The notes beneath the pieces are model-generated. The model was not told where the DNA came from, made no database searches, and saw nothing but the letters and a program-made list of their open reading frames with translations. Positions 6,298-62,382 of a stretch of 64,000 bases of DNA are shown here, one piece after another. How positions within the stretch are numbered: position 1 is the first letter of the stretch; the number at the start of each line of letters is the position of its first letter. Made by a program: the position numbers and the translations under genes. This stretch comes from Candidatus Omnitrophota bacterium (GTDB taxonomy: Bacteria; Omnitrophota; Gorgyraeia; Tantalellales; Tantalellaceae), in contig DAONGE010000001.1 in NCBI GenBank assembly GCA_035403965.1, positions 11,475-75,474 of the forward strand, in the 5' to 3' direction.

Positions 6298-6503
6298 AAT
6301 CAGAGGTAAGAGGACGGGATCTAGGAGGGAAATAATACTTTTGGTTCCGAGATGCCGTTCGTAAGCGCGTGAATCTGTCTAATATCCCACAAGATCGGGT
6401 TACTAACCAGTGCCTTGTTCCATATTTTTGAAGTACAGTGTATAATATCATTATTGGTAATATAATATGGAAAAGACGATCAAGTGACCACTTAAACTGA
6501 CCT

Positions 6504-9500
6504 ATGAATATCCAAAATATTATGGACGTTGTTATATGGCAAAAAGATTACATCATGTTTGCCGAGGGATTCTTTTTTCTTTTGATTTCCGTAGTGACAT
6601 GTCTTCTGTATAACTATGAGAAAAGAGAAATAGGGTGGAATTGGTTCTCGGTGTATACGGGCATGCATGCGGTATTGCTTTTTGCCGGGGTTGTAATGAT
6701 CAGCGTTAATGAACCCCCTTGGTGTGCTTTTCTCAGACAGATGTTGAATCTCATTTCGTATTTTTTCCTTATAGAGTTTGCGAGGGTCTCGTACTGCAAA
6801 AAGAACAAGGTGAACAGTGTTCCGTGGATATACCTGGTGATATTTCCGATATTAATAATAGCGGAAAATTTCCGGATAATAGATCTTTGGACCGGAGGCA
6901 CACAGATACTGAAAATAGCGGGTGCCTTTTTTTCCGGATGGACGTTGTGGCGGTTTTCTCTTGGCAAAGACGAGAAGAAACGTCGTGTGCTTCAGCCCAT
7001 AGCGGTGATATTTGTAATATTGGCTTTAATCGAATGGGTAGTGGCGACAAAGCTATATTTTTTACCGCGTAATTCTACCGCAGACGCGCTGGATCCTTTG
7101 AATGTGGTTTTCAGCGTGCTCGCGATAGAGATATTGTTCTCTTCAGCCGCGATGGTCTTATTGTGGAAATATTATTACGTTATCCGAAAAGAAAAATTGC
7201 CGGGTTGCTGGAAAAATATAAACAGAGAAATAAGGGTGATGGTCGGTAGTATAGCCGTGATAATTATTGCCGGTTGGTATTTGGCCCAGCAAAAAGGCGA
7301 ATTGACAGATAACGAAGAAAAAGAACAATTATATTCACATGCCTTGCTGGCGGCCAAAGCGTTTCCAGCCGAAGATATTCTCCGATTGACCGGCACGCTC
7401 CGTGACATGCAGTGGGGAGGATATCATAAAATAAGGCATCAGCTTAAAAGGATTTGTACGGAACTTCCGCGTTGCAGGTTCGCGTATATATTCGGGGAAA
7501 AAGAGAACGATATCATATTTTTGGCGGATTCGGAAAGTCTTACATCATCGGATTTTTCACAGCCCGGACAGGTTTATCTGGAGGCAAGTCAGGCGCTTAA
7601 GGATATCTTTAAGACGGGGAGTGGTATCATAGAGGGCCCGATGGCAGATAGATGGGGCGTGTTCGTAAGCGCCTTGATACCAATACACTACGAGGGAAAA
7701 GTTATAGCGGTTTTCGGTGTGGACGTTGACGCGACCCGATGGCACAAAATAGTTTTTCAGGAGCGCGGGATGAGGATGTTCATAACGGCACTTGCACTCA
7801 TTCTCCTTCTTTCTTTTTTCGTATACCGACAAATGGAGGAAGAAAGTAAAGAACTTCTTAGTATTTCAAAGGATATTCTTGCCAAAAGCGAGGAAAGATT
7901 CCGGTCGCTTGTTTCAAATCTTCCAGGAGCCGTCTATAGGTGTGCTAATGATGGCAAGTGGACAATGTCGTTCTTAAGTAAAACTATCGAAGACCTGACG
8001 GGATATCCTGTTTCGGATTTTATAGGTAATTCTGTCAGAAGTTATGCCGATCTTATTTATCCTGAAGATGAGGAAATGGTAAATAAACTGGTTAGGGAAG
8101 ATGACCGTAATTTCGCACTGGAGTACCGCATCATTCACCGGGACGGGACTATTAGGTGGATATATGAAAGAGGTATCGGCATAAAGGGGACAAGCGGGAC
8201 AATAGAATATCTTGACGGTGTAATGCTGGATATCACAGGTCAGAAAATGGCGGCGGAAGCTTTGGCTCAATCCGAGGCGTTGAAGGCCTCGATACTGGAT
8301 TCCATAGGGCATGCGGTAATAATAGTGGAGAACCGGATAATAAAGTATGCAAATAACGGTTTTAAAAATGTTTTTGGGTGGGAACCGGACGAAGTGATAG
8401 GTAAAAGCGCACAGATATTATATGCTTCCGATGAGATCTATGAAAGCGTCGAGGATAAAATATATAGACCTTTGGCGACAAAAAATAAACATGTGGAGGA
8501 AATGCAGTGCGTGAGAAAAGACGGATGCGGGATAATATGCAGGATCAGCACTTCTAAAATAGGCAACGATTTCACCAATAGAAAAGTGGTCGGGATAATA
8601 GAAGATGTTACGGATATTAAGAACGCGCAGGAAGCGCTTAACAAAGCCCTCCAGGATTATACGACCCTTGTGACCAATGTTCCCGGTATTGTGTATAAGA
8701 TTAAGATGGATATGTATGGAAAATTTAAATTTCTTTACGCCAGCGACGCATTTTCCAAGTTTGGAATAGCCGCGAAAGACCTCGTAGAAGATGCGGATAA
8801 GGCATTTGGAAAAATATATCCGGATGATCTGGTCCGCGTGATAGAAACAAGCAAGATATCCGCGTCGGAAATGTCGTTATGGGAATTAGAATTCCGGATT
8901 GTAGCGGACAAAGGAGAAATAAAATGGCTGTACGGAAAGGCTGTCCCGAATAAAGATGCGAATGGAGAAGTTGTCTGGGACGGTATTCTTATGGATGTGA
9001 CTGAAAGGAAAAAGGTCGAAGAACGGCTGGAAGAAGCCCAGATACTTTTGAAGGCGGCGATAACACAGTCTTCGTTCGGGATAGTCGTTGTGGATGCGAA
9101 GAAGAAAGTCAGTTTTTCAAATGTGGCGGCCGAACAGATAAGAATGGATGTCGGGCTATCTTTTGAGGACGAGACAAGGACAAAAGAATGGAGCGCGTAT
9201 CATCCTGACGGAGAGACGAAATATTTGAAAGAAGAATTGCCTCTGGTGCTTGCGGTAGACAAAGGGATAATTTCCGAAGATATAGAAATCGTGATTAAGC
9301 ATAAAACCAAAGAAGAGCGGTGGTTGTCTGTCAGCGCGGCGCCAATACGAAATAACGAGGGTGTAATTATCGCCGGTATAGCCCTATTTAACGATATCAC
9401 AGACAGAAAGAAAGCTGAAAGGAAACTCAGGAACACGTTGGAAGAGTGGCGGGCGACGTTCAACGCCGTAAGCGATCTTATGTTTGTTCTGGACAAGGAT

Positions 9501-12481: not shown

Positions 12482-15400
12482 ATGCCCAGGCGTGAAGATA
12501 TCCACAAAATAATTATCATCGGATCAGGTCCAATAATAATAGGACAGGCGTGTGAATTCGATTATTCAGGGACTCAGGCCTGTAAAGCCCTGCGTAAAGA
12601 GGGATATCAGATAGTTCTCGTCAATTCTAATCCCGCGACTATTATGACAGATCCTGAAATGGCCGATCGGACGTATATCGAGCCGCTTACAGTGGAAAGC
12701 CTCGAAAGGATAATTGCGAAAGAAAAACCGGACGCGCTTTTGCCGAATCTCGGCGGACAGACCGGGCTTAATCTCGCTTCGGCGCTTAACAAAGCCGGTG
12801 TTCTGAAAAAATACAACGTGGAAGTGATAGGGGTTAAACTAGACGCGATAGAACGGGGAGAAGACAGAGAGGTTTTTAAGGCGACCATGAAACAGCTCGG
12901 TATACCGGTTCCGGCGTCGGAGATAGCTCATTCCGTCGAGGATGCCGAGGCAATAGCGAGTAAATTAAAATACCCTGTGGTCATACGTCCCGCGTACACA
13001 ATGGGCGGCACAGGTGGCGGGATAGTTTATAACGTCGAGGAATTGAGGACGGTAGCTACAAGAGGTCTGGCGCTAAGTCTTGTGCATCAAGTATTGGTTG
13101 AAGAAGCCGTTATCGGCTGGGAAGAACTGGAGCTTGAGGTCGTTCGTGACGCCAAGGGACAGAAGATCACGGTATGCTTCATAGAGAATATCGACGCGAT
13201 GGGAGTTCATACCGGAGACAGTTTTTGCGTGGCGCCTATGCTGACCGTATCTAAGGATCTTCAGAAAAAACTGCAGGAATATTCATATAAAATAGTCGAC
13301 GCTATCGGTGTTATCGGTGGGACCAATGTGCAATTCGCGCATAATAAACAGGACGGGCGTATCGTCGTGATAGAGATAAACCCCAGGACATCGCGGTCTT
13401 CGGCGCTTGCGTCGAAGGCAACCGGTTTTCCGATAGCGATGGTCTCTACCCGCCTTGCCAGCGGCATAACGATGGATGAGATCCCGTACTGGAGAAAAGG
13501 GACGCTTGAGAAGTATGAACCGTGGGGTGATTATGTTGTTATAAAATTCGCACGGTGGGCTTTTGAGAAATTCCCTAAAGCGAAAGATACGCTTGGTACT
13601 CAAATGAAAGCCGTTGGAGAGGTAATGAGTATAGGGAAAAATTTCAAAGAAGCTTTTCAGAAATCCATACGCTCACTTGAAACCGGAAGATACGGTGTCG
13701 GCGGAGCTAAGAATTTCGGGACACTTTTGCTAGACGAATTAAAGATGCGTCTTGCCGCTCCATCCAGCGAGCGGATATTCCTTATGTACGAAGCGCTTCG
13801 TAAAGGCATGTCTCCGGAAGAATTGCATAAAATGACGCATATCGGCGTGTGGTTCATTAAAGAGATGAATGAACTGGTGGGTTTTGAAGAAGAGATAAAA
13901 AAATACCAGTGGAATAAACTGCCGGACGAAAAACTTATCAAAGCCAAAGAGTGGGGTTTTTCGGACAGGTATCTCGCCGGGCTTTTAAAAGTCACCGAAA
14001 AAGAGGTCAGGCAAAAACGTGTTTCGCTCGGGAAAATAGCCAGATATGAGGCCGTTCCAGTCAGCGGCGTAGAGAACGCTGCGTATTATTTTTCGACGTA
14101 TAGTTCCGGTAAAGACGAAGTGCCGGTGTCTAAAAATAAAAAAGTACTGGTTCTTGGCGGCGGGCCGAACCGTATCGGTCAGGGGATAGAATTCGATTAT
14201 ACCTGTGTTCACGCGGCTTTTGCCCTGCGCAAGGAAGGGTATGAATCGATAATGATAAACTGTAATCCCGAGACGGTGTCGACGGATTACGATACGTCTA
14301 ACAAATTATATTTCGAGCCGCTTACGGTAGAAGACGTTCTTGCTATATACGAAAAAGAAAAACCGGAAGGGGTCATCGTTCAGTTTGGCGGTCAGACGCC
14401 TTTGAACATAGCGCAGGAACTTAAAGATAACGGCGTGAAAATTTTGGGAACGACGCCGGAAAGCATAGCCTTCGCGGAGGACAGAGAACTATTTAGACAG
14501 AAAATGATAGAACTGAATATCCCGCAGCCGGAAAGCGGTACGGCGCGGTCTCTTGACGAAGCCGTGAATATAGCAAAAAAGATAGGATATCCTCTTATGG
14601 TGAGACCTTCGTTCGTTCTAGGCGGACGCGGGATGGAGATCATTTACGAGGAAGAGAGACTTAAAAAATACGCGGTTGAGGCGATCAATGTGCGCCCCGA
14701 ATACCCGATGTTGATAGACCGTTTTCTTGAGAACGCGCTGGAAACCGAAGTCGACGCACTGAGTGACGGCGAGAATGCGTATATCGCCGCAATAATGGAG
14801 CATATCGAATACGCCGGGATACATTCCGGAGATTCGGCGTGTGTGCTTCCGTCAAGAACGATAAAACCGGAACACATCGAGATGATAAAAAAATATACCA
14901 GAGCTATCGCTAAAGAACTGAAGGTCATTGGGCTTATGAACATTCAATACGCGATCTGTGATAACAAGGTTTATATCCTTGAGGCTAATCCCAGAGCGTC
15001 GAGAACGGTACCGATAGTGGCGAAGATCACGGGATATTCCATCGCGGCGATAGCGACGCAGCTTATGGTAGGAAAAAAATTCAAAGACTTTCCGTATTTG
15101 AAAGAGATCGATAAACTTCCATATATGGGAGTGAAAGAGGCCATGTTCCCGTTCAATATGTTCCCCGAAGTGGACCCGGTGCTTGGTCCGGAGATGAAGG
15201 CTACGGGAGAGGTTATGGGGCTCGCGTCGACATTTGGCGAAGCGTTCTATAAAGCGCAGGAATCGACGGGGATGCGCCTGCCTCTGAGCGGAAACGCGCT
15301 TCTTACAATAAGCGATCCTTATAAAAAAGAATTATTGCCGGTCGCGAAAAAACTTCAGTCGCTAGGATTCAATATTTTAGCTACCGAGAACACGCTGAAA

Positions 15401-15688
15401 TTCCTTAAAGATAACGGGATCCCTGGAACGTTCATTAATAAGATCCACGAAGGCCGGCCGAACATAACTGACGCAATAAAAAACAAAGAGATAAATCTTA
15501 TCATAAATACTCCGGTCGGGAGAAATAGTAAATTCGATGACAGCTATATTCGCATCATGGCTATACAGCATAAAGTGCCATATATCACCACAATGGCCGC
15601 GGCACGGGCAAGCATTGAAGCGATAGAATGCATGAAGAGCGGGAAAATCGAAGTTCGCGCGTTGCAGGACTATCATCCTAAAAAATAA
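12482..15688 (+). CDS. carB: carbamoyl-phosphate synthase large subunit
   Basis: Canonical CarB N-terminus KIIIIGSGPIIIGQACEFDYSGTQACKALRKEGYQIVLVNSNPATIMTD. Duplicated ATP-grasp halves (second at VLVLGGGPNRIGQGIEFDYTCVHA). MGS-like C-terminal domain. 1,068 aa. Confidence 0.95.
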   Translation: MPRREDIHKIIIIGSGPIIIGQACEFDYSGTQACKALRKEGYQIVLVNSNPATIMTDPEMADRTYIEPLTVESLERIIAKEKPDALLPNLGGQTGLNLASALNKAGVLKKYNVEVIGVKLDAIERGEDREVFKATMKQLGIPVPASEIAHSVEDAEAIASKLKYPVVIRPAYTMGGTGGGIVYNVEELRTVATRGLALSLVHQVLVEEAVIGWEELELEVVRDAKGQKITVCFIENIDAMGVHTGDSFCVAPMLTVSKDLQKKLQEYSYKIVDAIGVIGGTNVQFAHNKQDGRIVVIEINPRTSRSSALASKATGFPIAMVSTRLASGITMDEIPYWRKGTLEKYEPWGDYVVIKFARWAFEKFPKAKDTLGTQMKAVGEVMSIGKNFKEAFQKSIRSLETGRYGVGGAKNFGTLLLDELKMRLAAPSSERIFLMYEALRKGMSPEELHKMTHIGVWFIKEMNELVGFEEEIKKYQWNKLPDEKLIKAKEWGFSDRYLAGLLKVTEKEVRQKRVSLGKIARYEAVPVSGVENAAYYFSTYSSGKDEVPVSKNKKVLVLGGGPNRIGQGIEFDYTCVHAAFALRKEGYESIMINCNPETVSTDYDTSNKLYFEPLTVEDVLAIYEKEKPEGVIVQFGGQTPLNIAQELKDNGVKILGTTPESIAFAEDRELFRQKMIELNIPQPESGTARSLDEAVNIAKKIGYPLMVRPSFVLGGRGMEIIYEEERLKKYAVEAINVRPEYPMLIDRFLENALETEVDALSDGENAYIAAIMEHIEYAGIHSGDSACVLPSRTIKPEHIEMIKKYTRAIAKELKVIGLMNIQYAICDNKVYILEANPRASRTVPIVAKITGYSIAAIATQLMVGKKFKDFPYLKEIDKLPYMGVKEAMFPFNMFPEVDPVLGPEMKATGEVMGLASTFGEAFYKAQESTGMRLPLSGNALLTISDPYKKELLPVAKKLQSLGFNILATENTLKFLKDNGIPGTFINKIHEGRPNITDAIKNKEINLIINTPVGRNSKFDDSYIRIMAIQHKVPYITTMAAARASIEAIECMKSGKIEVRALQDYHPKK

Positions 15689-15699
15689 TGGCAAATCGG

Positions 15700-15860
15700 G
15701 GACGTTTCTAAAAATGATCTTAGAATCGTCCCCGATCCAATCCTAGAGCTGTCCCATTTCCGATCTTAGAGGTGTTCCAGAATCAATCTCAGACCTGTCC
15801 CCTGATAAAACAACAATTCCGTCCTGTGTAATTTTCTCCGGGGCAAAACTTAATCTTAGA
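15700..15860. repeat. tandem ~23-bp degenerate direct repeats (unit ATCYYAGANNYGTYCC), reverse-complement of the linker-coding minisatellite inside giant gene 2
   Basis: Units: ATCTTAGAATCGTCCCC (15728), ATCCTAGAGCTGTCCC (15752), ATCTTAGAGGTGTTCC (15775), ATCTCAGACCTGTCCCC (15798), plus partial units at 15700 and 15850. The reverse complement GGGGACAGGTCTGAGATTGATTCTGG matches 24/26 of GGGGACAGGTCTGGGATTGATTCCGG at 56930-56955. Confidence 0.6.
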
Positions 15861-15903
15861 CATTTATTTTTCGAAGCATCAAATATTATGATAAAATTAT
15901 TTT

Positions 15904-17253
15904 ATGAATCCCGCCAGAATACATATACTAAAGGAAGGCTTTGCGGGTACAGGCCCTGTTGTCTACTGGATGAGCCGTGACCAGAGGCTCAAGGATAATT
16001 GGGCACTTGTTCATGCGCAAGAACTCGCGATAAAGAGAAAAGTTCCCCTCGTTGTTGTGTTTTGTCTTGTAAAAAATTTTCTGGGTGCCACAATACGGCA
16101 ATATGGTTTCATGCTGAAAGGGCTAGAAGAACTCGAAAGATCTTTTAGGGAAAAGAATATTGCTTTTTATGTGCTTACAGGTGATCCGATCGGAGAGATC
16201 CCGCGTTTTTGCGAAAAAACACACGCCGCGATACTCGTAACGGATTTTGACCCGCTTAAAATTAAAAAACACTGGAAAGAAAAAGTATCCAGCAATATAA
16301 GCATTCCTTTTTACGAGGTTGATGCGCATAATATTGTTCCATGTCTTTTCGTTTCGCAAAAATGTGAGTTTTCCGCGCGAACCATCCGCCCAAAAATTAA
16401 AAAAATGCTACCCGAATTTCTTGAAGAATTTCCAGCGGTGAAGAAACATCCGTTCGGAGGGAAGGTGGCGGGGCCTGTTGATTGGAAAAAGATACGGGGA
16501 ACTGTCAGAGAAGATATGTCCGTGAATACCGTGAAGTGGATACTTCCGGGAGAGAGAGCCGCGAGAAAGGTTTTAAAAGATTTTCTAAAAAATAATCTGA
16601 CGGAATATGGGACAAATCGCAACTTTCCGGATAATGACGTACAATCCGGGCTTTCCCCATATCTCCATTTTGGACAGATATCGGCACAGCGAATAGCGCT
16701 GGAGGTTTTGAAAAGCGAAGCCAATGGCGTAGCTAAAGACGTTTTTCTGGAGCAGCTCATAATAAGGCGTGAATTATCGGATAATTATTGTAATTATTGT
16801 GAGGATTATGATAATTCAGCCGGATTCCCGAAGTGGGCGCGTAAAACATTATCCGAACATCGGAAAGACCGACGTACGTACCTTTATTCGTTAAAAGAAT
16901 TTGAAGAGGGACTGACGCACGATGAACTTTGGAACGCGGCTGAACTCGAGATGGTGAAAACCGGGAAAATGCATGGATATATGCGTATGTATTGGTGTAA
17001 AAAAATATTTGAATGGACAAAAACGCCGGAAGATGCCCAACGCTTAGCGATATACCTGAACGATAAATATGAATTGGACGGGCGGGATCCGAACGGATAT
17101 ACCGGAATAGCGTGGTCGATAGGCGGTGTTCATGACCGGGCATGGGCTGAAATGCCGGTGTTCGGGAAGATCAGATATATGAGTTATAACGGGGCGCGAT
17201 CAAAATTCGATATAAAAGCATATATTGCGAAAAACAAGCCAGCAAACCTTTGA
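15904..17253 (+). CDS. phr: deoxyribodipyrimidine photo-lyase, class II (CPD photolyase)
   Basis: N-terminal GPVVYWMSRDQRLKDNWAL. FAD-binding C-terminal domain with GLSPYLHFGQIS, WCKKIFEWT, GYTGIAWSIGGVHDRAW, all class II photolyase sequence. Confidence 0.85.
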   Translation: MNPARIHILKEGFAGTGPVVYWMSRDQRLKDNWALVHAQELAIKRKVPLVVVFCLVKNFLGATIRQYGFMLKGLEELERSFREKNIAFYVLTGDPIGEIPRFCEKTHAAILVTDFDPLKIKKHWKEKVSSNISIPFYEVDAHNIVPCLFVSQKCEFSARTIRPKIKKMLPEFLEEFPAVKKHPFGGKVAGPVDWKKIRGTVREDMSVNTVKWILPGERAARKVLKDFLKNNLTEYGTNRNFPDNDVQSGLSPYLHFGQISAQRIALEVLKSEANGVAKDVFLEQLIIRRELSDNYCNYCEDYDNSAGFPKWARKTLSEHRKDRRTYLYSLKEFEEGLTHDELWNAAELEMVKTGKMHGYMRMYWCKKIFEWTKTPEDAQRLAIYLNDKYELDGRDPNGYTGIAWSIGGVHDRAWAEMPVFGKIRYMSYNGARSKFDIKAYIAKNKPANL

Positions 17254-18997: not shown

Positions 18998-21900
18998 ATG
19001 CCTAATTATTTAAAAAAGATTATATCAATAGTAATAATCGTGACCTTTGTAGCGGATCCCAACATCGCATTGGCCGCTGATTCTGGCATATTCAACAAAC
19101 AGAATGATTCCAGCACGCTTTCCCCCACACTTAGAATGAAATCGATCGATGTGAACAAAGAAGAAAAAGCCTTGAATACAACCGGGATAGATGAAAAGGA
19201 TAATATATCTGAGGATTTCAGAGCGCAAAGCCGCTTTTTATATGTCGCCGGAGAGATCGGAAAAGCCATAGCGAAAAAAGAACAGTTAAAGTTGCCCATG
19301 GATGATATCCAACGGATCATCATCGAGAAGGTTCCAGACATAGATGCAACGGGATTCAATTACAAAAAAATAGGACTTAAAGAGGGAAGGTATAGTCTTG
19401 ATTATGTTGACAATGACAAGCCGTTGTTGACGCTAAATTATTATTTCGTAAAGGGCGATCTTGCCCAGGGTCAGATCAAAGTTGCCGATGTCAGCGAAAA
19501 AGGGTTGTTGGTCTTTGAATGCAATATGCCGGGCATGGATGGGATCGCGAGCATAAAAGAAAAAGAAACCAGCGAACCTAAAATACAAAACAGTGTACAT
19601 AAGCGTATTAGAATGTCCAAAGATGAAAAACGAGATGTAGGAGAAATAAACGCTCAAAATAATGGTATAGACAGAAAGGCGCTTCGATTTACTAACGTGT
19701 TGGAGAAACGGCTGAATAGGGTTTTCACCGCCGCGGCGGTCAGGCAAAAGACAGGAAGAAAGGTGGAGATCAAGATAACACCGGTTTTGAGGTACGGGAA
19801 CAACGAAGCGGCGGCTTGGACCCGCGGCTTCACAATGCGTGCAACACGTTCAGATATGACCATAATCCATGAGTATAGTATGGTTTTTGACAGGACAGAT
19901 CTTAAGGAATTTCTATTTACCGTGAGGCACGATATTTCCAGGATAGAGGGACTTAATGATATCGCGGATATTCCGGAGTGGGAAGATCTGATGTATGACC
20001 TTGCCCTTCAGCCCAGAACTATGGATGAAGCGACAGTAGTGAATACCGCGCAGATGGAAATAACGAAACGATATTATCGTTTCAATGATCCGGAAAATCT
20101 TTATGTCGAACATCCGGCGCCTGTTATCTTCTTTTCACCAGTAGTGAACTTACTAGATATATTCCCGATAACCGTGATGATGGATATAGATGGTAAGCCT
20201 TTTTATTTTCTGGAAAGAAATCTCGGGCTTGTTGGGCTTACAATGAATTCCGGGGTTCCTCACATGGTAAGGTTCACGCAGTTTGAATATGCCGGGCGTA
20301 TCCGCAACGGTATTGAGATCGTCAGATTCACGGATAACTATGAACCGACAGCCTTTATTCTTAGAGGGTACATCGATCTGGAAAAGGGTTTTCAGATAAT
20401 CCATTATACACGGGAAGAAAACGAGATGAACAAGATACGGCTTCCCGGTATGCGTAACGAGGTATTGGAAATCGAAGCTATGTGTAATCTTTGGCCGAGA
20501 TTATCGGAAGAAATTACTCGTGATAAAACAGAAACAATGACGTCGGAAGAGAATAAGAAAAATAAAAAACCGGAACTTGCTCCGCTATACCGTGATATGG
20601 GCGTTATTCTCGGAACTTTGGTCGGCGCGGGACTTCTTTACGGGCAATTCGGTATCACGGGTATCCCTGTGGCGGCGGCTATTTCGGTGCTGACCTTGCT
20701 GCCGGGCTGGCTTATACATGAAATAGGGCATCTGATCGGCAGGCCATTCGGGAAAGAGGCGGAGATCAGGGCCGGGCCGATAGCGAGTTTGTTGCTTTTC
20801 AGCGCCGCTATCATACCGGCCATAGTGCTGCATTCGTACGGTTTTCCAAGCGTTATAATAGATGTCGCCGCGGCGAATTATTTTGTGCATATATTTGCCG
20901 ACGGCCAGTCGCTGCTCAAGCGATCCGGATTTTTGCATCCGGAAGATGTGAATGATGCAAATATCCCGGAGCGTGAAGATCAGGATGAACTAACTCCCGG
21001 CCAGAAATTAATTAATAAAATCAAGGAAGTTTCCGCAAGAGGATTGGCCGATTATGGTGTCATAAAAACACCGTTGATACCGCTTGATAAAATAAGCGGG
21101 ATGATGAGTTTCAATAGAAAAGAAAGAAAAGTGTTCTTAAAAGACGAGGCCTGGCAAACCGGAGGCTCGTTTAAAGCCCGCGGGGTATCAGTCGAGGTTG
21201 ACGATGCGATCAGGTCAAGGATAGAAGCCATTATAGCGGAGGAACCGCATCTTCAGGAAATAAAAGCTTCTGGGAAAACACCATTAAAAGAGAGACCGTT
21301 CTATATAGTTACGCAAACCACCGGTAATCACGGTATCGCGCTTATAAACGCTGTTAACGTGGCGATAAAAATATATTCCGAGAAATATCCGGAGTATAAG
21401 GAAGCGATAACTAATTTCGAGCCGGTCATATTTACTATAAAAAATCTTCCGGAGATAAAGTTTAAATTGATGACCGAAGCGGTGGAGATATACAGAAAAA
21501 CCAGCGGAAAAACAGAAAGCGAAACAATCAGGAATTATTACGAAAATTACAACAAAGCGCTGACTGCCAGAGAGGAATTTTTACGAGAGCATTCTGAAGA
21601 CGCGGTGTATATGGAACACGGCGGTCTTGCCATAATGGCCGGACACGCGACGGCCGGGATAGAAATAGACGAGCAGCTTACCGAGGAATTCGGGATAGGG
21701 AAAGACAAAAACGTAGTTGTGATAGTGCCTGTCGGTGCCGGCGGTCCTATAGGGATAGGTGCGGGTGTAAAACTTAATGGACGGAATGTGACCTTTATCG
21801 CGGTCGGGACTAAGGAGTATGACGCGATCATTCGAAGCATAGATTCCAGCAAGGTGGAATGGAACAAAGCGAATCCTTCTCCCACGGCGTTTATAAAAGG

Positions 21901-24900
21901 TAAGCCTATCATATATCCTGACGGGATTGCGGTTGATAAATCCGAAAAAAGCGCCGTAGACGTTGCACGTGATTTTGTTGACGAGAAATTTGTGACAAGC
22001 GATAAGAAAGGACTTAACAGGGCCGCGCCGCTTTTATATTCAGACCTTGAAAGTTATTACATGGAACGCGCGAAACCTCTTGCTGTCGGAGGAACGACAG
22101 CCGCTACGCTTGAGGCCCTGATCGAAAATAAAGGTAATGAGATTATGAAAAACGCCGATGTCATAGTGCTTTTCGGCACAGAGGGTAACGTAGACCCTGA
22201 TATAACGGAATACATTTATGGCCTGAATTCCGGCAACGAACCGTTAAAATTCGGCGAAAACGGAGAGCTGACCACTCAGCTGATCGGCAAACTTAAGGGA
22301 TATGACATAGCGGCCAGAGAGAACATACATGGACAGCGGTATAGTCAGGCTGAAGTTTTTATTGAAAAACAGCGATGGGTGCTTAAGAATGCGGCTGCGT
22401 GGGATAAAGAGGCTGTTGATCAGGCCCGGTATGTAATAGGGAATTATCTGAGTTTAGTGAATAGCTATTGTCGGGCCATGAAGAATGAAAACGATCAGAA
22501 AATAAAAACAGACATGATCGAGAGTTGCGAAAAGTTACTGAAAAACACAACCAGCCTGTATGAAAAATTTAAGCGAGAAGGGAAGATCCTCGGGTGTGGT
22601 GCGTACATTATCAGCGCGTACACGAACCTTGCGGGACAATATGGGAATGAGGATTTTTATAAGATCGAAAGACTATTGGATACGGCTAAGGAAATATTGG
22701 ATCAGGGTGCCGCAGACCGATATGGGGATATTACCACAGAAGGGGCGAGAGAGGTCATTCCGCCTATAACAAAACAAGCGGAGTTCATTATAACCGGGTA
22801 TATGAAATTGGCCGGTAAGATGAAGTGGCAGGATGACTTTGCCAATGCTTTGAGAATAGCTGAAAAAGCCAGGGATCTGTTGGCCAAATATAGAGACGCG
22901 CCCGGTGTGGAAAATGTGTTTTACGATGTTGGTATTTTTTATGTTAATTTGGCAGCTATATACAGGGATCGTTTTCGGGATATTGTTTTTTCAATGGCGA
23001 TGCTGATGAAGGCAGAGTCTATCCGCATAGAGTTTGGAGAATATAACAGCGCCCAAAAAGGGCATAGTACAGGGAATAGGGCATTATCAAGTTCGATTAT
23101 AAATGGTTATACGTTAACTGCCAGGAAGTTTTCAGAGAAGAAACAATATGCGGCCGCGGTACATGCCATAAGGAGATCCGGGGTCCTTACCTGGCGTTAC
23201 GGGACCGATGAATATAAAGAAAATCGTGATATCGTTGGTTTGATGGTTCTTGCCAATGCAGTATCTAATATTTTGCGAAGAGATGTTCTTGAGAACAAAC
23301 AGGAGTATCTAAATAACTTGAACGACGCTAAGCGTATTTTATGGATATCCGCGCAAGTGCTAAGGAAATACGACACGCCAAGCGTAAAAGCGCAGGTGGA
23401 ATATTTGGTAAGCGCGTATACGAATCTGTCCTATTCATATAAAACGGTTGGAGAATATGGTTTATGTGGAGATGTTTTGGAGAGGGTCGAGCGTATATTG
23501 CGGTCGTATCCGGATCAGCAAAGCGTGAGAGATCAAGCCGAGTTTGTTGTGAGTAGTTTCGCGAACCTGGCAGGGGCATACAGAGAGGCCGGGGATCTTG
23601 AAACGGCCGAAAAATTTCTAAATAGAGCATATAAAGTATTTTTAAATTTTATCGGAGAGTACAGCGTACAGAGGCAAAAAAAGTTCATGATAGACGATCA
23701 TATGCGTCTCAGCCAGGCTTTTGAAGTGAAAGGCGATCGACAGAAAGCAGTGGAATTGTCCGACAAAGCGTTAAAAATAGCGCAAACGAAGTTAGATGTG
23801 GAGAAACATAAGCGTCTGCGCGCGATGGGACCGATACCTTTCGAGATGTTCATCGTTTTTCTGGCATACGGGAGCATTTACAAACATCGTAAGGAGATTA
23901 TTGATTTTATCCATTCAAAAGGTTATTTGCGCCTGGAAAAAGCCGTACGTTTGTTAATACCGGACTTATCCAAATACCGCGTGACTGAATGGTTGCATGA
24001 AAGTCTTCAGAATATATCCATAGGATTAACGATCAAACCGGTCGCGATAGATCAGGGCATGTGGGATCTTGAGCAAAGAATACCTGAAAGAGGCCAAAGC
24101 GAAGAAGCGAAATTCATAGAGATGTTTGGAGGGCATTCCGAGGAAGTTCTTGAATTTATAACCGAGGAACGAAATTGTTCCGAGATATCCGGGTTTTCTA
24201 TAAAGAACGTAAAACATTTTGAAACGGCCGAAAATGTTTCGCGGAATGTATACCGGATCGAGCTGGTATTGAAAGGCGGTCACAACCATGTGTTCTATGT
24301 TAGGGAATACAGATCGACTGACGGGGAATCCCAGATAGGCGAGCTTGATTGGATAACAGGGCCTATACGACGCATGACCGATAGGGTTGAAAAAGCCGCG
24401 GCGGCAGGAATGGTGGCGCCGTATGCTCGACTGTTTATCGATCGTGGAAGATGCCTATTCGTACAGGACGAGGCCCAGGGGATACCGGTAAAAGAATTTA
24501 TAAAAGACGAGGAAACCGCGCTATTGGCCGCCGAATCGATAGGTTATGCGCTTGGGCGTTTACATGGCTTAGGAATAGAACACGGTGATCTGGAAATAGA
24601 GAGAAAAGGAAGCCCGGAACATAATCATATTTTCATTCATGAAGAGAACGATGGGGTCACGGCGAATTTTATAGATTTTTATGAAAGGCCTTTTTCTTTT
24701 TGGAGAAGAGGCAAGGTTAAAATATTTGGCGAAGAAGATGACCTGCTCAATAAGCTTGAAAAATATGTGTTCGGAAAGATAGGCAGTGAAAATCGGGCGG
24801 AAAATGAAATCGCGGATGTATTTACCAAGGCCTACATAAAGGGCAATGTTTCCGTGGGGGAAAAATACAGGCCAAGTCTTGTCGCCAAGATAAAAATGGC

Positions 24901-27900
24901 TTTAGGGAAATTTAAAGAAAAAGTCGCAGATCGTATGCTAGTGCATAAAATCATGGCGAATTCGGTAGAAGCTATACATGATGAAGAGAGGCTAATTGAA
25001 GCCTCTGGCGGTGAAGCGCGTATTGTGAGGAGCGCAAATCATGGCACGCAGGGTACAGTGCAGACTGGCGAGGCAGATGGAGAAAATATTGTCGCGGCGG
25101 ATAACGAGAAAAATGAGGGAACCGTAACAGCAGTAAATGGGGCCGTTGTTTTGGGATTTTCACAGGCGAATTGTTGGACCCCGCTTGCGTTGTATGCCGG
25201 CCTTTTGATCTACAGTGAATTGTATAAGCACCGGAAAGCTATCATAGACTTCATCCATTCAAAAGGCTATTTGCGCCTGGAAAAAGGCGTACGTATCCTG
25301 CTGCCGGATCTTTCCAAATACCGCGTTACAAGGATGTTCCACAAAAGTTTGATGAATATGTCAATAGGGGGAACGATCAAAGAGACTGATGAATCCAACA
25401 AATACGATCTAGAAATAAGAGCCAGGCTTAGTGAAGTTGATGCATATATCGGCAGTAATGAGCTGGACAGCGCGGAGAAAGCTTTGAAACGGGCACAATC
25501 TATATTGTTCAAATATGTAGGATTATATCCCGATGACGCAAATATCAGATACATCGTCCTGCAATTTATTTCCGCATATGGAAGCCTTGCGGAAAATGCC
25601 ATTAGTGTCGGAGATTCAAGGGAATCATTGGAAATGGCGTTTCGTGCGTATAATGCCCAGTACAGGATATTGTCTTTAAAAGCTGTTCAGGAGGAAGATC
25701 GTAACAAACTGGTTGTACATGCGATGGTGGGTATCGCAAAACTTTGCGGATCATTTTTGGATTTAAGCTCAGGAGCACAGATAGCGCGAGCATGCGCAAT
25801 GGCAGAGAGGGCACAGGAAATATTTACGGAAAACAGGAATATTCAGAAGGTAAAAAAGAGAGCGGCGACTTGCGTAAAGGCCTTTTGTAAAGTGTCCGAA
25901 GCATACAGTAAATCCGAAAAATACGACGATGCATTGTCAATGGTCGACAAAGCCGCGAGGGCGTTAAAGAATAATGAGAAGGAAAAAGGTGTGAGGGGTT
26001 TGATGCGGGAAGTTGTGCGTTTGTATATGTCCGGTCTTGATGAAATGTGCGGGAATGAGGATAAATTAAAAAAACTCATGAATGAATTTAGGGATAGGTT
26101 GAAGTCAGATCCGTCGGATCCGGTAACAGAAATGATATTTGCGTATATGATGCTGATCTCCGGCAATACAAGTAACGCTGTGGCTTATGCTATGGACGGG
26201 ATAACCAATAGTGACAATGTATTATTGGATATCGGCAATCAAATCGTTCGCACAGGGAATATGATAGAGATGATCGGAAAAGTCCAGGATGCGGCGGAAC
26301 TGATCGATCTGAGGATAAGAATAGAAGAAGAGCTTTCTCCGGGGAATTTGAAGGATAGATGTATTAGCGAATGGGATAAGAGAAATGCGCAGCTTGGCGG
26401 ATCAGAATATGTTGCTTTAAATAAACAGGAGCATGTATTGACTGTACCCGGGGATGGGGCAAAAACAGTGTTAAATAGTGTTTCGGTTCAAGAAGGCGAA
26501 AAACGAAATGATTTGCCGAGGCGCGCGTTAATAGAATTGTATAGGCAGATTGATGAGTGCATGAAAGGATTTTATGATGCAGTTTCTCATAATGAAACTG
26601 ATAAGGCTGAAGGCCTGCTTGGCAAAGCTAAAGAGGCACTTGATGAGATCATTGAGGAATACCCGGATGCTCATTATCTGAAAACAAAGTTTCAAACAAT
26701 TTGTATTGGATATATTAAACTTGGCGGAGTTATGGCAGGACAAGACAAATCGATGCAAGACCTATCAAAAGCTTTCCGTGCTTTTAATGCTGAGCATGAA
26801 ATGCTGGTGGATGCGAAATACGCTGCATACAGAGAATTGAAAGACATAGACAATGTATTGATTCGGTTGATGGGGCGATGGAGAAAACTTGGCAGATCAT
26901 TTTTACAATATTCTTCAAAAGAAAGCACGAGTATTGATACAAGCGCAAAAGCGATAGAAAAATCCATAGAAATATTTGACATGTATAAGGCGGGTGGAGG
27001 GTTGCCGATAAGTGCACAGGATTATGTAAACGATCTGTGTGATATTTCTGACGCATATATCTACTCAAAATCTGACAATAAGGCCGAAGAGGCGATGAAA
27101 GCGACAGCCGCAGCCGAAAAACTGGCAATGGACAACAGGTCTGGATACGATTCGATGGAGATGTTATGTAAAGTTATTCGGCAATATCAAAAGTGTATTA
27201 TCATTTCGTGCGATAATATGAAAAATGTAAAGAGGTTGATAAGTGAATTCGGCGGGCGAACAGAAAAGAATAAAATGGATGCGGTAGCGTCAGGCGCGTT
27301 GTCACTGTTATATCTGATATCCGGGGAATCCGCGCAAATGATCGCATGCCTTGACTTGGCTCAGTACAGCATTAATGACCGGATGAAAATACTTGATGAA
27401 GCCGCGAAATTTTTGGACGAGTATTCTAAGCGAAATCCGGATGATAAGACCGCTAATTTTGTGCGCCTCCAAATTTGGGAGCGTTGCAGGGTGCCGGACG
27501 GTTCCACTTTACAGGAAGAAACCGAAGAAGAACATCTAAAAATGTTTCTTAGCCATTTGAACGAACGATATAAACTATTTACGGGATATTGCGAAGTATT
27601 TTTTGATACGAAGAAAGCCGAGTCCCTTGCATGGAAATATATGATCTCTTATACAAGGCTATGCAAATTGTTGCTGGATAAAAATACTGAAGACGGGATC
27701 AAACATGCCGAGGAAGCTGGCACGCTGGCGTTTGAAATATTTGCCAGATACGAGGATAGTATAGAAATCAGCAACCAAAAGAAATATCAAATAGCCAATT
27801 GTCGCAGGCTGTTCAACATATATTTGAAAGGTAATAAACCGGAAGACGCGTTTGTGATGATCGACAGGGAAAGAAGATTGTTCGGACTAGATATGGCTGA

Positions 27901-30900
27901 ACCAGATGTGAGCAGGGAAATAATGACGCAGTATGTCGAAGTAGTTGATAGTGTGAAAGACGATCCCGAAAAGATCAATGACGTTATGGAACGGTTAAAA
28001 GAGATAAGGAAAAACGATGTTTTCGCATCAGCCGTTCTTGCGTATATATGCCTGTGTTTTGGGAAAAATACAGAGCTTAATAGGGAGAACTATATAGATG
28101 ATTTGAGGAAAAGAGGGAACGAATATCTAGCAGAGTTGGCAAGACAAATGACAATTATGCGCGTTCTGATCAAAAAAATTAAGGAAGCGAGTGATATAGG
28201 TGAGATAAATAAGATTGAGAAAGAACGAAAGGAAGAAATATATATTCTGTTTTTACTAAGGATAGGTGAAGAGTGGGAGAAGTTGCAGCGAGAAAAAATG
28301 CGCCGGGGAGAACGACGAAGGGCTGACCAGGACGCTGAATCCGTGGAAAGTCAACAAAAGGTGTCAAAGACGCAAGTAGAAGCGTCCCAAGTGGTGGTGC
28401 CTAGTCAGGAAGAATTACCTGTGACGGTTGTTGCGACTGAAACTCCGAAAAAGAGGGATGAGGTGGGTTTGCCTGTGAAAAGTGCAAACACCCCGAGCAA
28501 ATCCGGACGGAAAACGAAAAAAGAAATAGCTTTTGAAAAAAATAAAGGGAGCAAAGATAAGCGGATCGATGAATTGATGGAAGTGATCGATGCTAAAAAC
28601 CCGGACGAAGTTATACGGTTGGGAAGGATTTTGGAAGAAAAAAGGAAAAAGTCTGTAAGAAAAGGAGATGCAAAGGGCACGGAAAGATTAGAACAGGCTA
28701 TTGTAAAAGGAGAAGGCTTTTTGAAAAGAATTGGATTAGATGGCAGTGCGATCCGCGCACATGCTGTTATGCCTTTTGGGTTTGCTCAGGCAGATTCATG
28801 GGCGCCTCTCTGTCTTTATGCCGGACTTTTAATTTACACCGCGCTGTATAAACACCGCGAAGCTATCATAGATTTCATTCATTCAAAAGGCTATTTGCGT
28901 TTGGAAAAAGGCGTACGTATCATCCTGCCCGACTTTTCCAAATACCGCATTACAAGGGCGTTACATGAAAGTTTACTTAACGCATCGATAGGATTAACGA
29001 TCAAACGGATCAAAAATAAAACCGCAGGTATTTCGTCATCCGAATTGTCTGTTGAAGAAGCAGCCGGGTTGTTGACCGCATGGATAAACACGCCCCCTGA
29101 AGAAAGGATAAAATCAGTGTTTCAGCCTGTATGGAGTCAGGACAACTCTTTGTTGGGAAAATACAACACCAACGGACAAAAGGTAACAGTTACTCCGGCG
29201 GTGTTGTATTTTGATCCTATGCTTGCGATAGCTAAAAGCATAATTACATATAAAGAAAAAGAACCTCAAGAGGCTGAAAGATATGTAATTCAGGCTATGT
29301 CCGGAAAAGCGTTTGAAGAGTTGTGTCAGAAAGATGTTCGAGATGCATTGATAAGCTGCGGATATGATGCCTTTTTTAAGAATGGAACGATAGAACTGGT
29401 GGAAAAAGAGGGAAGAGAAGAACTGTTATATCCAAACGGAACTAATGTGGCGATTTTTCCGGGATCATTGCTTGGATTTGTAACGGCGTTATACTGGGCA
29501 AAAGAAGGCAGGTTTGGGGAAGTAAACATGCTGATTGTTCCTCCGGTAAACGGTCTTTGTTTTGGGGAAAATAATCCCGATAAACTCTATGCGAAACGAG
29601 CAATTTTTATCAATCGGGAAAATCATATTGTAAAGGTAGAGTTTAAAGATCTGCTTCCGATTCACGGTCTTGCCTATGCCGGGATTTATAGTAACCCGGC
29701 GACAATGAATGAGATAATGTCAAAAGATTTTCCGGTTATTAATTTGCCGATTATTATAGAAATGGCACAGGATAAAGAGTTATTCAATACTTTCTTAAAA
29801 AATAACGGTATCTCTGTCCCGGAACAGTTGGCGATCGATATTGATGATACGAGAAACATCAAAAGCCGGATGACGGATTTCATTAAAAACTTAAAAAGAA
29901 AAGATGGAATTGTAGTTAAGCCATTTGCCGCTTCGGGAGGGCAGGATGTGTTGATGTTCCGGAATGATGAAATAGACAAAGCGGCCGGTCATTGTAAAAA
30001 ACTGCTAAAAAAGGGGAACAAAGTTGTTGTGGAGGGGCGTATTGTTAATGAAATATGGATTGATAGCAGCCAGGGCCATATCGATTGGAATTTACGTGTG
30101 CTTGCAACATGGGACAACGGTAATATAGTTATAAGCCCGGATTTGATAGAAGTCAGATACCAGAAATTTAGCGACGGACCGGTTAATAAGTCAAAAGGCG
30201 CCGAAGTAATTACATTGAATAAATTTTTTGATATACAAGGTTATTCAAAAAAACAAAGGGAACAATTTCTTCAGGGGGTAAAAGAATTTATTACCGGTGC
30301 TTCAATGGCGATTGAACGTGTCGCGGAGAATAAAAAAGGAAAAAGAGAATATATTAGTAAAGTATCCGGCCTTATTGGGTGGGATATTATGTTGGGGCGG
30401 GACGGAAAATGGAAAGTGATCGAAGCCAATGCCGGCTCAGTTGGAGGGATATCTACTATAGAAAAGCTCCTTCCGATTGAACAAAAAGGCGGCGCGGTTA
30501 TTCCAGTAGCGCGTTATATGGCACAAAATGCTATAGCATACCGTGAAAGATTGTCGAAAATACCACAGGATAAAGAGGGGGAATCGTTCAATGTGATTGC
30601 GGATCCATTTATGATGAATAACCTTGCATGGACGGCAGTAGAAGAATCCTATCTGCAAATTGCAGGAGAGATTGCATGCTATTTGCTTGGCATGAATGAG
30701 CGCCGAAAAGATAATAGTGCAATAAATTTCGATATTTTAGCTAAAGTTTCCCTGATGAGGAAAGATTATAATCAGGCAAAATATTTTGCAGAACAAGCAA
30801 TCAAAATTGACCCTAATGACATCGATATGCAGAGGCAATATGTGTATTGTTTGGCAATGTTGAATGAAAGTGATGAGGTCATTAAGATATGCAAGAGACT

Positions 30901-33900
30901 TGTAAGAAAATATTTGTCAGATTGGTATATATGGACGATTATGGGAGATTCATATCGGCTTAATATGGATGATAAAAAGGCGATAAAAGCTTATGAAAAG
31001 GCGGTGAAAATATACTGTGATAAGGGTCAGACATATTCGAAAATAGGGGATGCATATTCTAGGTTGAAAAATTATGAAAAAAGTGCGGATGCTTTTAGGA
31101 GAGCTTTAGAAGTAAACCCAAATAATAGATATGTATGGGCAAGATTGAGTGATGAATATGAAACTCTTGGATGCAAGGATTTATCAGATTACATTACGGC
31201 CGAAGTGTTTGATAAGCTGGATGAAGGCGAATCGCCAAAAATAGAGTGGTCAAATATACTTGAGCACTTAAAATCTGGGGAAAGGATTGTTGCAACAAAA
31301 CATAGGGAAATGGCGGGCACACATGCTGTTTTTGCATTCGGGCTTGGTCAGGCGAATTGCTGGACCCCTCTTGCGTTGTATGCCGGACTTTTAATTTACA
31401 CCGCGTTGTATAAACACCGCGAAGCTATCATAGATTTCATTCATTCAAAAGGCTATTTGCGTCTGGAAAAAGTCGCACGTATCCTGCTGCCGGATCTTTC
31501 CAGCCTCAAATTCAAAAAATATTTGAGCGAAAAGATCTCTGATCTAACCGCGGACATGATTAATACCATAACCGGTTCTGTCAAAAACAAAGTTGACGGG
31601 AAAAAGATGCAGATCCCGTCCGACAGATTGCCGCGCAAGGCAAGCACGTTTGAACATAACGCGCAGTATGGGGCTAGGGGCAAAGGTCCCGGAGGCATTG
31701 ATCATGGAACAACGGCCGGCGGGAAAAAAATAGACAGCGGAGTGATCACGGAGCAGCGTGCAAAAGAATTTGTCGACAAAAGCGAGTTAACGTTGAAGGG
31801 CGATGACGGCGAAGAATATTTATTCCTGCTACAAAGTCGCGAAGATATGGCCGAAGGCGCATATACAATATCGGTTATAAATAATAAAAGAGAAAGGGTT
31901 GCCAAGCTGGACGTAGGGAAGAATGTTGTAGAAGAGGGTTTTGAGGGAATGTATGATAACGCGATTGTTGTAAGAGAGGATCTTAAAAGGAGGAATATTG
32001 GGGCCATATTGTTCAAATTAGCGATGTATATCGCTAAGGCAGATGGCTTCGAGAAGTTTTTTGTGAACTGGGTGGATAGCGCCAATGAACCTGAGAATGC
32101 GTTTTATACGGCAATAGGTTTTAAGGAAACATATGAGGGTTCCGGAGATTATTATTTTGACCTAAAAGATCTTGTATCCGGAAATAAGACGGTAGAAAAA
32201 ATATCATTCCCACTTTATGACATACAAGTGACCAGAGATCCTGTAACCGGCAGAATGATCCGAGAAGAAGTTTATGATTATATGCCGCTAGCCGCTACTT
32301 CGGAAAAAAGATATTTATATTCAGTCAGAGTGTATGGTCCGGATAGACTTCTTTCCGAAGCCAGATATTACGACAACTCCGGAAAGCTGATAAAGGTCGC
32401 CGCGAATGATTACGAGTTTTTCTCAGACATGTACAGCCGTTGGATGGATATGAATCCGTTTACGGCCAAGGATGTGTTGATTTCCTATGTAGAGCATGCT
32501 AAAGGGAGGGCTCTCAATAATGACGAAATAAAACAGATCGACCGGTTTGTTGTAGCGGTTTTTGATAGGGATCTTATGGGATTTATAAATTCGTACAGTA
32601 AATCTGAAGAAGGGTATCCATATTTTTGTCATAAAGCGGCAGATGATATCTATGATACGTTGCGATCAAAGGGTATAGCTGTGCGGACCGTATGGTATGG
32701 TATTCACAAGGTAGCCGAAGCCGATGTGGCCGGGATAAGATTTGTGCTGGATGGAGCTGCGGCGCAGTTCGAAAAAATGCGAGATAACGCTATCAGTATT
32801 GTAGCCGACGCATTTAGAGGTACTGGAATAGTGATCATTCCGTCGGATCTGGCGCGTGAAATACCGTTTTGTAACCTGATATACAAGAACGATCTTGGGG
32901 GTGGAGAAGTAGGCAAGATTTACGATCCATTAACCGGACGGGAATTCCTATTAAATGCGATGTTTAATTTTCTTCTAGTGAAACAGGAAGGATCGGAAAT
33001 AACGGTTGATCTCGAAACAGGCGGGCCGGTTGTAGGAGAGATAGACTCTAGGCCGGAAGAGCGTCTTCGCGTGCTTAGGGATTATTATACTCTCTCAGAC
33101 AAGCCGGATGAATTTGATAAGTTGTTAGAACGTAGATCTGTAGCCGATCGTGAGATGCTTGAACGGGCGAAAACAGTCGCCGCGTATAACGCGGAGCGCG
33201 GTGAAAAAAGAATGGATCAGCCCGAGCAAGAGCCGGGAAGGATATTTAAGGAGATTTTCGGCGGATCGGCGGAGGAAGTGCTTTATTTTGCCACACAACG
33301 AAGCGACAGGTCGGGGATACTGTCTTTTGTAAGGACGATTCTTAAACATCAGCCGCTGAGGCAATTTGTTGAAATGAACGAATATAGGAACGAAATAGTT
33401 ATGACAAACGGTGTGAAATATGTGTTTGACACAAAGGAATATTCGTTTGATCATGGCAAGGGAGCGAACATAACGGACATCGTTGACGCTGTCGCGGTGT
33501 CGGTCGATAAGACGAGAATGGCTTTCGGTCTTGGGTTTGCCCCTCAAACGGATATGGTGATATTAGGCGGGAAGCTTGTTGTACTACAGGAACCTGTTAA
33601 AGGGGTTATGTTCAGCGGATATGCACAAAGTCCGGCGGATCTTATAAGATCCGTTGAGGCTATAGGATGCGCTCTTGGACAGATGCATAGAAATGGAATA
33701 CTGCACGGGAATATTGAAATATCCGGGGGAAATAAGGAGGAGAGGGAAAGCGTATATATTGACGAGACTTCAGGGGTTCCGAAGGCCTATTTTATTGATT
33801 TCGGGGGCGAGTTGGTAGTGGGCGCGAAAAAAGAATTTCTGGGAGAAAAGAAAAAACTCATCAGCGATATTTTAAAGTACGCCTCTGACCATTTTCCCCG

Positions 33901-38977: not shown

Positions 38978-39059
38978 TCTAATCCCGCATCGATGTATTA
39001 TTGCATTTTATGTTATGTCAAATCTCTGTTATTTGTGATTTCACGAATTTTTTATTATT

Positions 39060-62326: not shown

Positions 62327-62382
62327 TTAATACTTTAAAAAGTAAGTAAAAAATTGACAGATACTAACCAAACGAGGGATCA

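Follow-up and report, generated by a model that had tools for sequence, protein, structure and literature searches.

The present analysis concerns a 23-24-bp tandem repeat in 64,000 nucleotides of DNA from a Candidatus Omnitrophota bacterium (the window), in which a degenerate, reversed array lies in the gap between carB and a DNA photolyase gene and three further arrays lie within a giant gene (giant gene 2). Our results make it highly probable that each array is an arm of a non-autonomous repeat family belonging to a Y1 (HUH) transposase system of the RAYT/TIRYT type (REPtron/TIRtron), where RAYT stands for REP-associated tyrosine transposase and REP for repetitive extragenic palindromic sequence. 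In other Omnitrophota and Planctomycetota, inverted arms bracket a Y1 transposase gene and solo arms are scattered elsewhere. The comparative data point to the repeat family as primary and to the linkers of the giant gene as captured copies.

The homology of the four arrays was supported by several comparisons. Once reverse-complemented, the stretch 15690-15870 lines up with the three coding segments from one end to the other, including the terminal GATCAnnTTTnGAAACGTCCC, and local alignment of the intergenic sequence to the three coding arms gave scores of 53-66, against 14 ± 2.3 (maximum 30) for mononucleotide shuffles. A search with the 15-mer GGACAGGTCTGRGAT, allowing up to three mismatches, found 14 matches in the window where 1.7 were expected; none of 100 shuffles reached 14, and 12 of the 14 matches fall in the four arrays. 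A hidden Markov model (HMM) trained on 22 arm termini from foreign genomes, with no sequence from the window, matched the three coding arms over the full model length (E 2.9e-9, 3.1e-9 and 5.3e-10 for arms 1, 2 and 3) and the intergenic arm at 15802-15774 (E 1.9e-6) and 15724-15697 (E 2.7e-4), and nothing else in the 64 kb was significant. These data uphold the observations of a preliminary description of this DNA, namely a reverse-orientation degenerate copy in the gap after carB, three in-frame linkers in giant gene 2, and one repeat in coding and non-coding contexts on opposite strands. The identity of 24/26 that it reported is exact, between 15802..15777 (reverse complement) and 56941-56966, and its remark that the intergenic copy yields no clean linker peptide also holds, as stops occur in all six frames; it makes no mention of the terminal GATCAnnTTTnGAAACGTCCC.

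The arrays consist of GGGGACAGGTCT at a spacing of 23-24 bp and are capped by an inverted half-unit, …GAAACGTCCC. A complete arm comprises one to four units and the terminal inverted half-unit, ...GAAA(A/C)CGTCCC, and its terminal module reads GGGACAGGTCT...GAAACGTCCC. On the minus strand, the intergenic arm has four units of 22-24 bp with falling quality, GGGGACAGGTCTGAGATTGATTCT, GGAACACCTCTAAGATCGGAAAT, GGGACAGCTCTAGGATTGGATC and GGGGACGATTCTAAGAT, the fourth of which runs into the terminal CATTTTTAGAAACGTCCCC, so that the outer terminus lies 9 nt past the carB stop codon. Tandem Repeats Finder reported a period-23 array in the gap (15717-15801, 3.7 copies, 67% matches), with a consensus, ATCTTAGAGCTGTCCCAGATCCA, that is reverse-complementary to the coding units, and arrays of period 23-24 in giant gene 2 at 48527-48589, 49372-49458 and 56919-56980. 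Five further loci (L001-L005) carry the intergenic array with 100% identity, of which L001 belongs to the source record and the other four to independent assemblies, and two other assemblies have coding arrays 1 and 2 without any difference; therefore, an assembly artefact is excluded.

The association with a transposase was revealed by pairing arrays of opposite orientation, as a 160-aa open reading frame (ORF) was found between two arms at locus L109. Inverted arms stand on both sides of a Y1 ORF at L109, L021 (also L130), L068 and L098, and at L092 only the downstream side of the ORF bears a clear array, the upstream side having just two unit-like sequences. Of the five loci that were read, all but L092 show the complete layout, GGGACGttt..(AGACCTGTCCC units) – ~100-350 bp – ORF – (GGGACAGGTCT units)..gaaaCGTCCC. 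A tblastn search with the L109 ORF found homologs adjoining arrays at L021, L068, L092, L098, L036/L045 (where the array adjoins the ORF and the flanks were viewed separately) and L124, and weaker Y1 homologs beside arrays at L063 and L101. The arm-flanked ORFs encode ~152-160 aa and give a Pfam match to Y1_Tnp (E 5e-18). Among NCBIfam families they score highest against the REP-associated tyrosine transposase (REP_Tyr_transpos), at 71-76 bits, just below the 80-bit equivalog cut-off, and their only PDB match is E. coli TnpA-REP (4ER8). The HUH histidines (H60, H62), the catalytic Y120, and N124 and P125 (Y..NP) are invariant in the alignment, in which only the core positions of the E. coli TnpA-REP row serve as evidence. 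The motifs NHVH, WQ, YIEYNP and WSSY are present. Of the coding arms' foreign matches, the best is the L109 arm that abuts the transposase stop codon (80% over 82 nt with coding arm 1). The suggestion in the preliminary description of repeat DNA that is mobile or recombinogenic and has spread to other sites is thus supported in substance, in that a dispersed family brackets a RAYT-type Y1 gene in relatives.

One genome per prokaryotic species was scanned for two GGACAGGTCT cores 12-15 nt apart, which returned at least 118 loci against about 4 expected by chance under our own uniform-composition estimate. A coherent set emerged in Omnitrophota, 'Planctomycetia' metagenome-assembled genomes (MAGs), a PVC-group MAG, Verrucomicrobiota, Clostridia and an Actinomycetota MAG, with the architecture n × (GGGGACAGGTCT + ~12 nt) and a last unit running into ...GA(A/C)(A/C)CGTCCC. 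The 11-nt core is conserved across phyla, the module of last unit plus terminus measures ~34 nt in foreign arms as it does in the window, and 41 arms among the matches listed end in [AC]CGTCCC. At least eight loci were found in Omnitrophota nzgw316, at least seven in Omnitrophota Zod_Metabat.83 and at least eight in 'Planctomycetia' binchicken_co334_155. Besides those flanking transposase genes, arms are solo or head-to-head, scattered, and mostly between genes. In each of these three genomes, the Y1 gene is present in only one block among those listed and arms in many, which is the signature of a REPtron-like system and not of an insertion sequence. Head-to-head doublets of arms ~20 nt apart, resembling REPINs, occur in binchicken_co334_155 (L010, L038, L051, L122).

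Several other observations were made in these genomes. In Clostridium MAGs (L016, L040, L056), doublets are arranged oppositely, with the units pointing inward. In Zod_Metabat.83, a shared non-coding sequence (…GAGATATTTTCAGTGCGAACATAACGAGGATTATGGCTTAGCT…) of up to ~350 nt precedes the arm at no fewer than four loci, which hints at a larger non-autonomous element of composite build, or at a structured RNA; Rfam at gathering thresholds gave no match at four related loci. A high-GC variant, GGAACCGGGGACAGGTCTG..GGAACCGGGGACAGGTCTGTCAGACCTGTCCCTCTCTGTGCTCATCAT, ending in a perfect 11-bp core palindrome, recurs at many loci in Actinomycetota MAGs, and no transposase gene was present in the blocks retrieved for it. 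Scans of metagenome contigs for the 21-nt terminus and for a two-unit signature gave zero matches in a collection without the JGI records known to contain these sequences (L134 from 3300025858, L005 from 3300025867) and were uninformative.

Several reports in the literature place these arms. Di Nocera et al. 2013 described tyrosine-transposase genes with long inverted repeats instead of hairpin REPs, named TIRYT and TIRtrons, which form moderately abundant dispersed repeat families in some genomes (PMC3733652); many of their repeats have GGGGWSAS, i.e., GGGG[AT][CG]A[CG] (PMC3733652; PMC6006769). Quentin et al. 2018 equated TIRYT with TnpA-Y1 subclass 2.1 and with group 1 of Bertels (PMC6006769; group 1 RAYTs, PMC5581495), gave NHVH, W[EQ], YIELNP/Y[IV]HLNP and an SS tail as its motifs, and found no REP-like structures for it in a systematic survey (PMC6006769). 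The unit GGGGACAG fits the terminal inverted repeat (TIR) motif, and a proteobacterial (Methylophilus) homolog of 44% identity, whose length is typical of subclass 2.1, has single inverted GGGGTCAG repeats on its flanks. The likeness to TIRtrons extends to a Y1/HUH gene bracketed by inverted GGGGWSAS-type repeats, to repeats dispersed as singles, dimers and clusters in many phyla, and to NHVH, WQ, YIEYNP and the Ser-Ser tail, the signature of subclass 2.1, an assignment by motifs and not by a tree. The differences are that the arm here is a tandem array of 1-4 units with an inverted half-unit whereas TIRtrons have a single TIR, that the transposases have 152-160 aa, compared with a median of 238 aa in subclass 2.1, and carry no C-terminal helix-turn-helix (HTH)/DnaA-like domain, and that the window itself holds no transposase partner. 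From the motif fit, the transposase motifs and the Methylophilus flanks, membership in the RAYT/TIRYT-associated repeats (REPtron/TIRtron) is therefore, as judged by sequence, of a known kind; the points of difference are the multi-unit arm, the short HTH-less transposases, the phyla that act as hosts and the occurrence in frame within giant genes.

With the classical REP/REPIN–RAYT systems of E. coli and Pseudomonas (Nunvar 2010, Bertels & Rainey 2011, Ton-Hoang 2012), the family shares a single gene flanked by inverted repeats, many non-autonomous extragenic copies close behind ORFs, as known for REPs (PMC3733652), the head-to-head doublets mentioned above, and a transposase whose only solved relative is TnpA-REP. 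It differs in that none of the four window arms has GTAG next to it and in that most arms have a tandem direct repeat in place of a stable palindrome of 20-40 nt; TAG before the first unit in several other genomes is only suggestive of the GTAG tag. CGTC-tagged REPs (Di Nocera 2013) have a stem of 8-9 bp, a loop of 4-5 nt and a CGTC tag that stays unpaired, and no transposase is associated with them. The arms contain CGTC (ACGTCCC), yet they are tandem arrays associated with a transposase and do not fit that class.

The BOX elements of Streptococcus pneumoniae are modular, with a variable number of internal boxB units, and to our knowledge have no dedicated transposase. Our arms resemble them in having variable internal tandem units and a distinct terminal cap, as a structural analogy only, the sequences being unrelated. 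Rickettsia palindromic elements (RPE) were reportedly described by Ogata et al. in 2000 as ORF-preserving repeat insertions. The coding arms recall both RPE and intragenic REPs, which lie in frame, add 20-80 residues and leave the ORF intact, REPs inside genes encoding 20-82 extra residues (PMC3733652). This is a likeness of behaviour and not membership of RPE families by sequence, as the sequence family and host phylum are others and the host is a giant multi-domain gene with the insert thrice at one module boundary. CRISPR, the template/variable repeat pair of diversity-generating retroelements, CsrA-sponge RNA and the ends of multi-site DDE transposons (Tn7/Mu/IS21) were considered from the sequence and dropped on the Y1 association. 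Searching the literature for the 10-mer brought up nothing but eukaryotic primer sequences.

Concerning the coding arms, they are translated as ...GSDGDRSGIDSGTDLRGETGTGLGSDLETS... and variants, rich in Gly/Ser/Asp/Thr/Arg and ~27-35 residues long. The open frame of the unit reads GGG GAC AGG TCT GGG ATT (G D R S G I), and a TGA, within GATTGA, occurs in one other frame. Giant gene 2 contains six copies of a ~260-bp module, at 46558, 48343, 49189, 53752, 56734 and 58234, and an arm begins ~18 bp downstream of three of them (48343, 49189, 56734). A protein search with the module and linker (150 aa) found no homolog. A second case of translation was found in Omnitrophota nzgw316 (L085, ~6380-6920, minus strand), where an arm is read in the identical frame, GDRSGIIAGTGLR (GDRSGIIAGTGLRLQPEPS). 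It lies ~146 codons into a run of no fewer than 2306 codons free of stops, which extends past the end of the locus.

The intergenic arm has a further property, as its terminus and the mutated adjacent unit form a strong imperfect hairpin, TCGGGGACG-T-TTCTAA / TTAGAA-T-CGTCCCCGA (15 bp, interrupted), with a folding energy of -14.2 kcal/mol as DNA (z -6.1) and -26.6 kcal/mol as RNA (z -6.9). No T-run follows it, no intrinsic terminator or sigma-70 promoter consensus was found in 15500-16000, and an Rfam search of the gap in E-value mode gave only meaningless miRNA-like hairpin matches, or none. Since the other arms fold like shuffled sequence, the strong hairpin is a peculiarity of the intergenic copy. 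It may have been kept for a role at the 3' end or in mRNA stability, of the sort described for REPs.

Based on these comparisons, the following course of events is proposed. By analogy with E. coli TnpA-REP and the IS200/IS605 enzymes, the transposase would recognise the arm as single-stranded DNA and would cut and rejoin at its terminus, spreading arms in trans. One arm would have inserted just after carB and later decayed, leaving its terminus and mutated neighbour unit as the stable hairpin of the 3' untranslated region. Another would have entered giant gene 2 in the sole open frame and orientation, right after the ~260-bp module, and would most likely then have been copied with the module by intragenic duplication, the unit number drifting to 3, 4 and 3; the outcome would be three Gly/Ser/Asp/Thr/Arg-rich linkers.

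Several points weigh against this account. Some of the scan loci, mostly in high-GC genomes, are unrelated tandem repeats, and the transposases stay below the NCBIfam cut-off. The coding arms and the transposase-flanking arms of L109 fold no better than shuffles (z -0.8 to +0.9); therefore, recognition based on a hairpin, as in classical REPs, is not evident. A tblastn search found no arm-type Y1 transposase gene in the window, and the 10 kb upstream contain no arm units; as no cognate Y1 gene was found in ~74 kb of the source genome, the window arms may be orphans. None of the best 120 homologs of the L109 transposase was traced to the source assembly, and one candidate for a cognate transposase of the source genome, P0125, was rejected on proving to be the 'Planctomycetia' gene of L021. 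All other assemblies of the source organism represent one strain with identical arms, and mobility is something we infer. The closest relatives, with carB 81% identical, have no arm after carB, their loci being non-syntenic with a small zinc-finger gene 33-42 bp after carB. Finally, the history of a single insertion followed by duplication rests on modest differences in identity.

The RAYT that the window does encode also counts against the account. It lies between the two giant genes (its true ORF is probably 39264-39788, although called as 39060-39788) and gives 68 bits with NCBIfam REP_Tyr_transpos. Sharing 25% identity with the arm-type enzyme, it belongs to a different subclass, its motifs PDHIHGI, WQRNYYEH and YIINNP matching the signature of subclass 2.4 / group 4. 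It has its own GC-rich, GTAG-tagged REPs, a family distinct from the arms, with a doublet inside the gene (39534-39589), a duplicated RAYT fragment with doublet upstream (39050-39150, 95% identical to 39491-39592) and a single REP downstream (39816-39845); no other copies of this REP family were found in the window.

Among the other explanations is one that the preliminary description had considered, in which the intergenic array would be what decay has left of a paralogous giant-gene module (module end and linker) formerly present on the minus strand. Frames of the gap on that strand do hold linker-like fragments (GDRSEIDSGTPLRSE; GTILRSFLETSP) broken by stops, and MAFFT set GCCCCGGAG opposite the module end GGCCCGGGG. 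However, such peptide likeness follows automatically from the homology of the arm DNA, and the 101 bp beyond the intergenic arm (15803-15903) scored 13-19 against the six module ends, within the range of shuffles (14-15 ± 2, maximum 24). Similarity across genomes is likewise confined to the arm and never extends into the ~260-bp module, and elsewhere the arm is mostly in non-coding DNA and flanks transposase genes. From the foreign matches and the intergenic flank, nothing but the arm is shared, and the lost-module explanation therefore fails; we consider it highly improbable. A larger element was rejected as well, as neither the 260-bp module nor its peptide adjoins arms in other genomes, and the giant-gene linker, the implied source of the intergenic copy in the preliminary description, gives way to an arm family that is widespread and not private to the giant gene. 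The arrays could also be host regulatory or protein-binding sites, iteron- or operator-like and unrelated to transposition, which the coding copies merely resemble. The regular spacing of 23-24 bp and an 11-mer conserved across phyla do suggest a sequence-specific binding protein, but the arrays flank Y1 genes in ~8-9 genomes, including weaker cases, where our own estimate of the number expected by chance in 118 eight-kb blocks is ~0.3, and the carB loci of relatives have no array. The iteron form of this idea, also raised previously, finds no replication initiator, replication-gene or origin context, the flanks being carB and photolyase and the copies being dispersed at unrelated loci genome-wide in relatives. 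Host binding sites thus appear very unlikely; the units are probably protein-binding sites, but for a transposase.

A different question is whether each of the three coding arms was inserted independently, at a favoured target site behind the module, or whether arm termini acted as recombination breakpoints. In favour of this, the DNA homology among the arm-bearing copies runs through module and arm and ends at the outer terminus of the arm, the downstream sequences being unrelated, and in the arm-less copies homology is lost ~9 bp before the point where the arm would start. On the other hand, the three arms agree in frame and orientation, all contain the GGGATTGATTCC spacer and are identical in the 21 nt of the terminus, and the arm-bearing module cores are the most alike, at 90.3-93.3% identity to one another compared with 82-91% for other pairs. 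We therefore regard independent insertion as unlikely, and the module identities modestly favour one insertion followed by duplication of module and arm. That the similarity as a whole is due to chance, low-complexity sequence or an assembly artefact has only the short unit length to recommend it and, given the shuffle controls, the HMM of foreign sequences and the identical independent assemblies, is a negligible prospect. The arms are thus best regarded as a RAYT/TIRYT-type repeat family.

The coordinates of the features are given in Table 1. The window has 43% G+C, and its carB–photolyase gap is 215 bp long. The carB of the window has homologs of 76-81% identity in Omnitrophota MAGs, which places the source in that phylum. 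Giant gene 2 has Pfam matches to HATPase_c, Glycos_transf_2, Acetyltransf_1, MutS_V and others, and also contains 129-bp tandem repeats (~4.4 copies, ~80% identical) at two sites, 47029-47601 and 54229-54785, which are part of a ~1.07-kb internal duplication (46531-47597 vs 53725-54785, 87% identity). A third long ORF on the plus strand (~62350-64000, >547 codons) begins soon after giant gene 2 and exits the window.

Table 1. Positions of the repeat arms, associated sequences and neighbouring genes, in window coordinates or by locus number for other genomes.
Feature	Position	Strand	Remarks
Solo degenerate repeat arm	15698-15802	-	carB–photolyase gap
Strong imperfect hairpin	15696-15735	+	Arm terminus + mutated adjacent unit; carB 3' untranslated region
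Coding arm 1	48526-48607	+	3 units incl. terminal module GGGACAGGTCTGGGATCAGATTTGGAAACGTCCC; in frame; peptide ~GDRSGIDSGTDLRGETGTGLGSDLETS
Coding arm 2	49372-49477	+	4 units incl. terminal module; in frame; peptide ~GDRSEREIGDRSGIDSGTGLRGKPGTGLRSDLETS
Coding arm 3	56917-56998	+	3 units incl. terminal module; in frame; peptide ~VDRSERENGDRSGIDSGTGLGSDLETS
Core of ~260-bp repeated module of giant gene 2	48343-48507	+	AIVDFLYEKSRMKKWY...RYLAKSLLMGPGLTI
carB	12482-15688	+	Pfam CPSase domains; upstream neighbour of intergenic arm
DNA photolyase gene	15904-17253	+	Downstream neighbour of intergenic arm
Giant ORF 1	18998-38977		6659 aa
Giant gene 2	40045-62208	+	Uninterrupted 7387-aa ORF; carries all three coding arms
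Zod_Metabat.83 shared pre-arm sequence	L083 1-121, L096 1-252, L097 (reverse complement) 1-245, L119 6600-7198		
High-GC Actinomycetota variant	L013, L018, L025, L079, L103, L105, L112, L115, L120		

With these findings, a coding linker that has a reversed non-coding twin becomes recognisable as repeat arms captured in frame by a host gene, and a repeat family with multi-unit arms and an 11-nt core is documented in Omnitrophota and Planctomycetota. The arms are translated in one frame inside giant ORFs of Omnitrophota in two independent examples, a feature that two papers on Omnitrophota giant genes do not mention. For annotators, such linkers should not count as a protein family signature, and the arms are likely to break assemblies. 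The arm HMM offers a simple probe for the contribution of these elements to the linkers or breakpoints of giant genes. It is conceivable, though we think it rather improbable, that in Omnitrophota the arms are recurrent building material or recombination joints of giant genes, providing open-frame linkers (GDRSGI...) and breakpoints for the duplication and shuffling of modules. If this were true, a domesticated transposase system would aid the modular growth of giant proteins.

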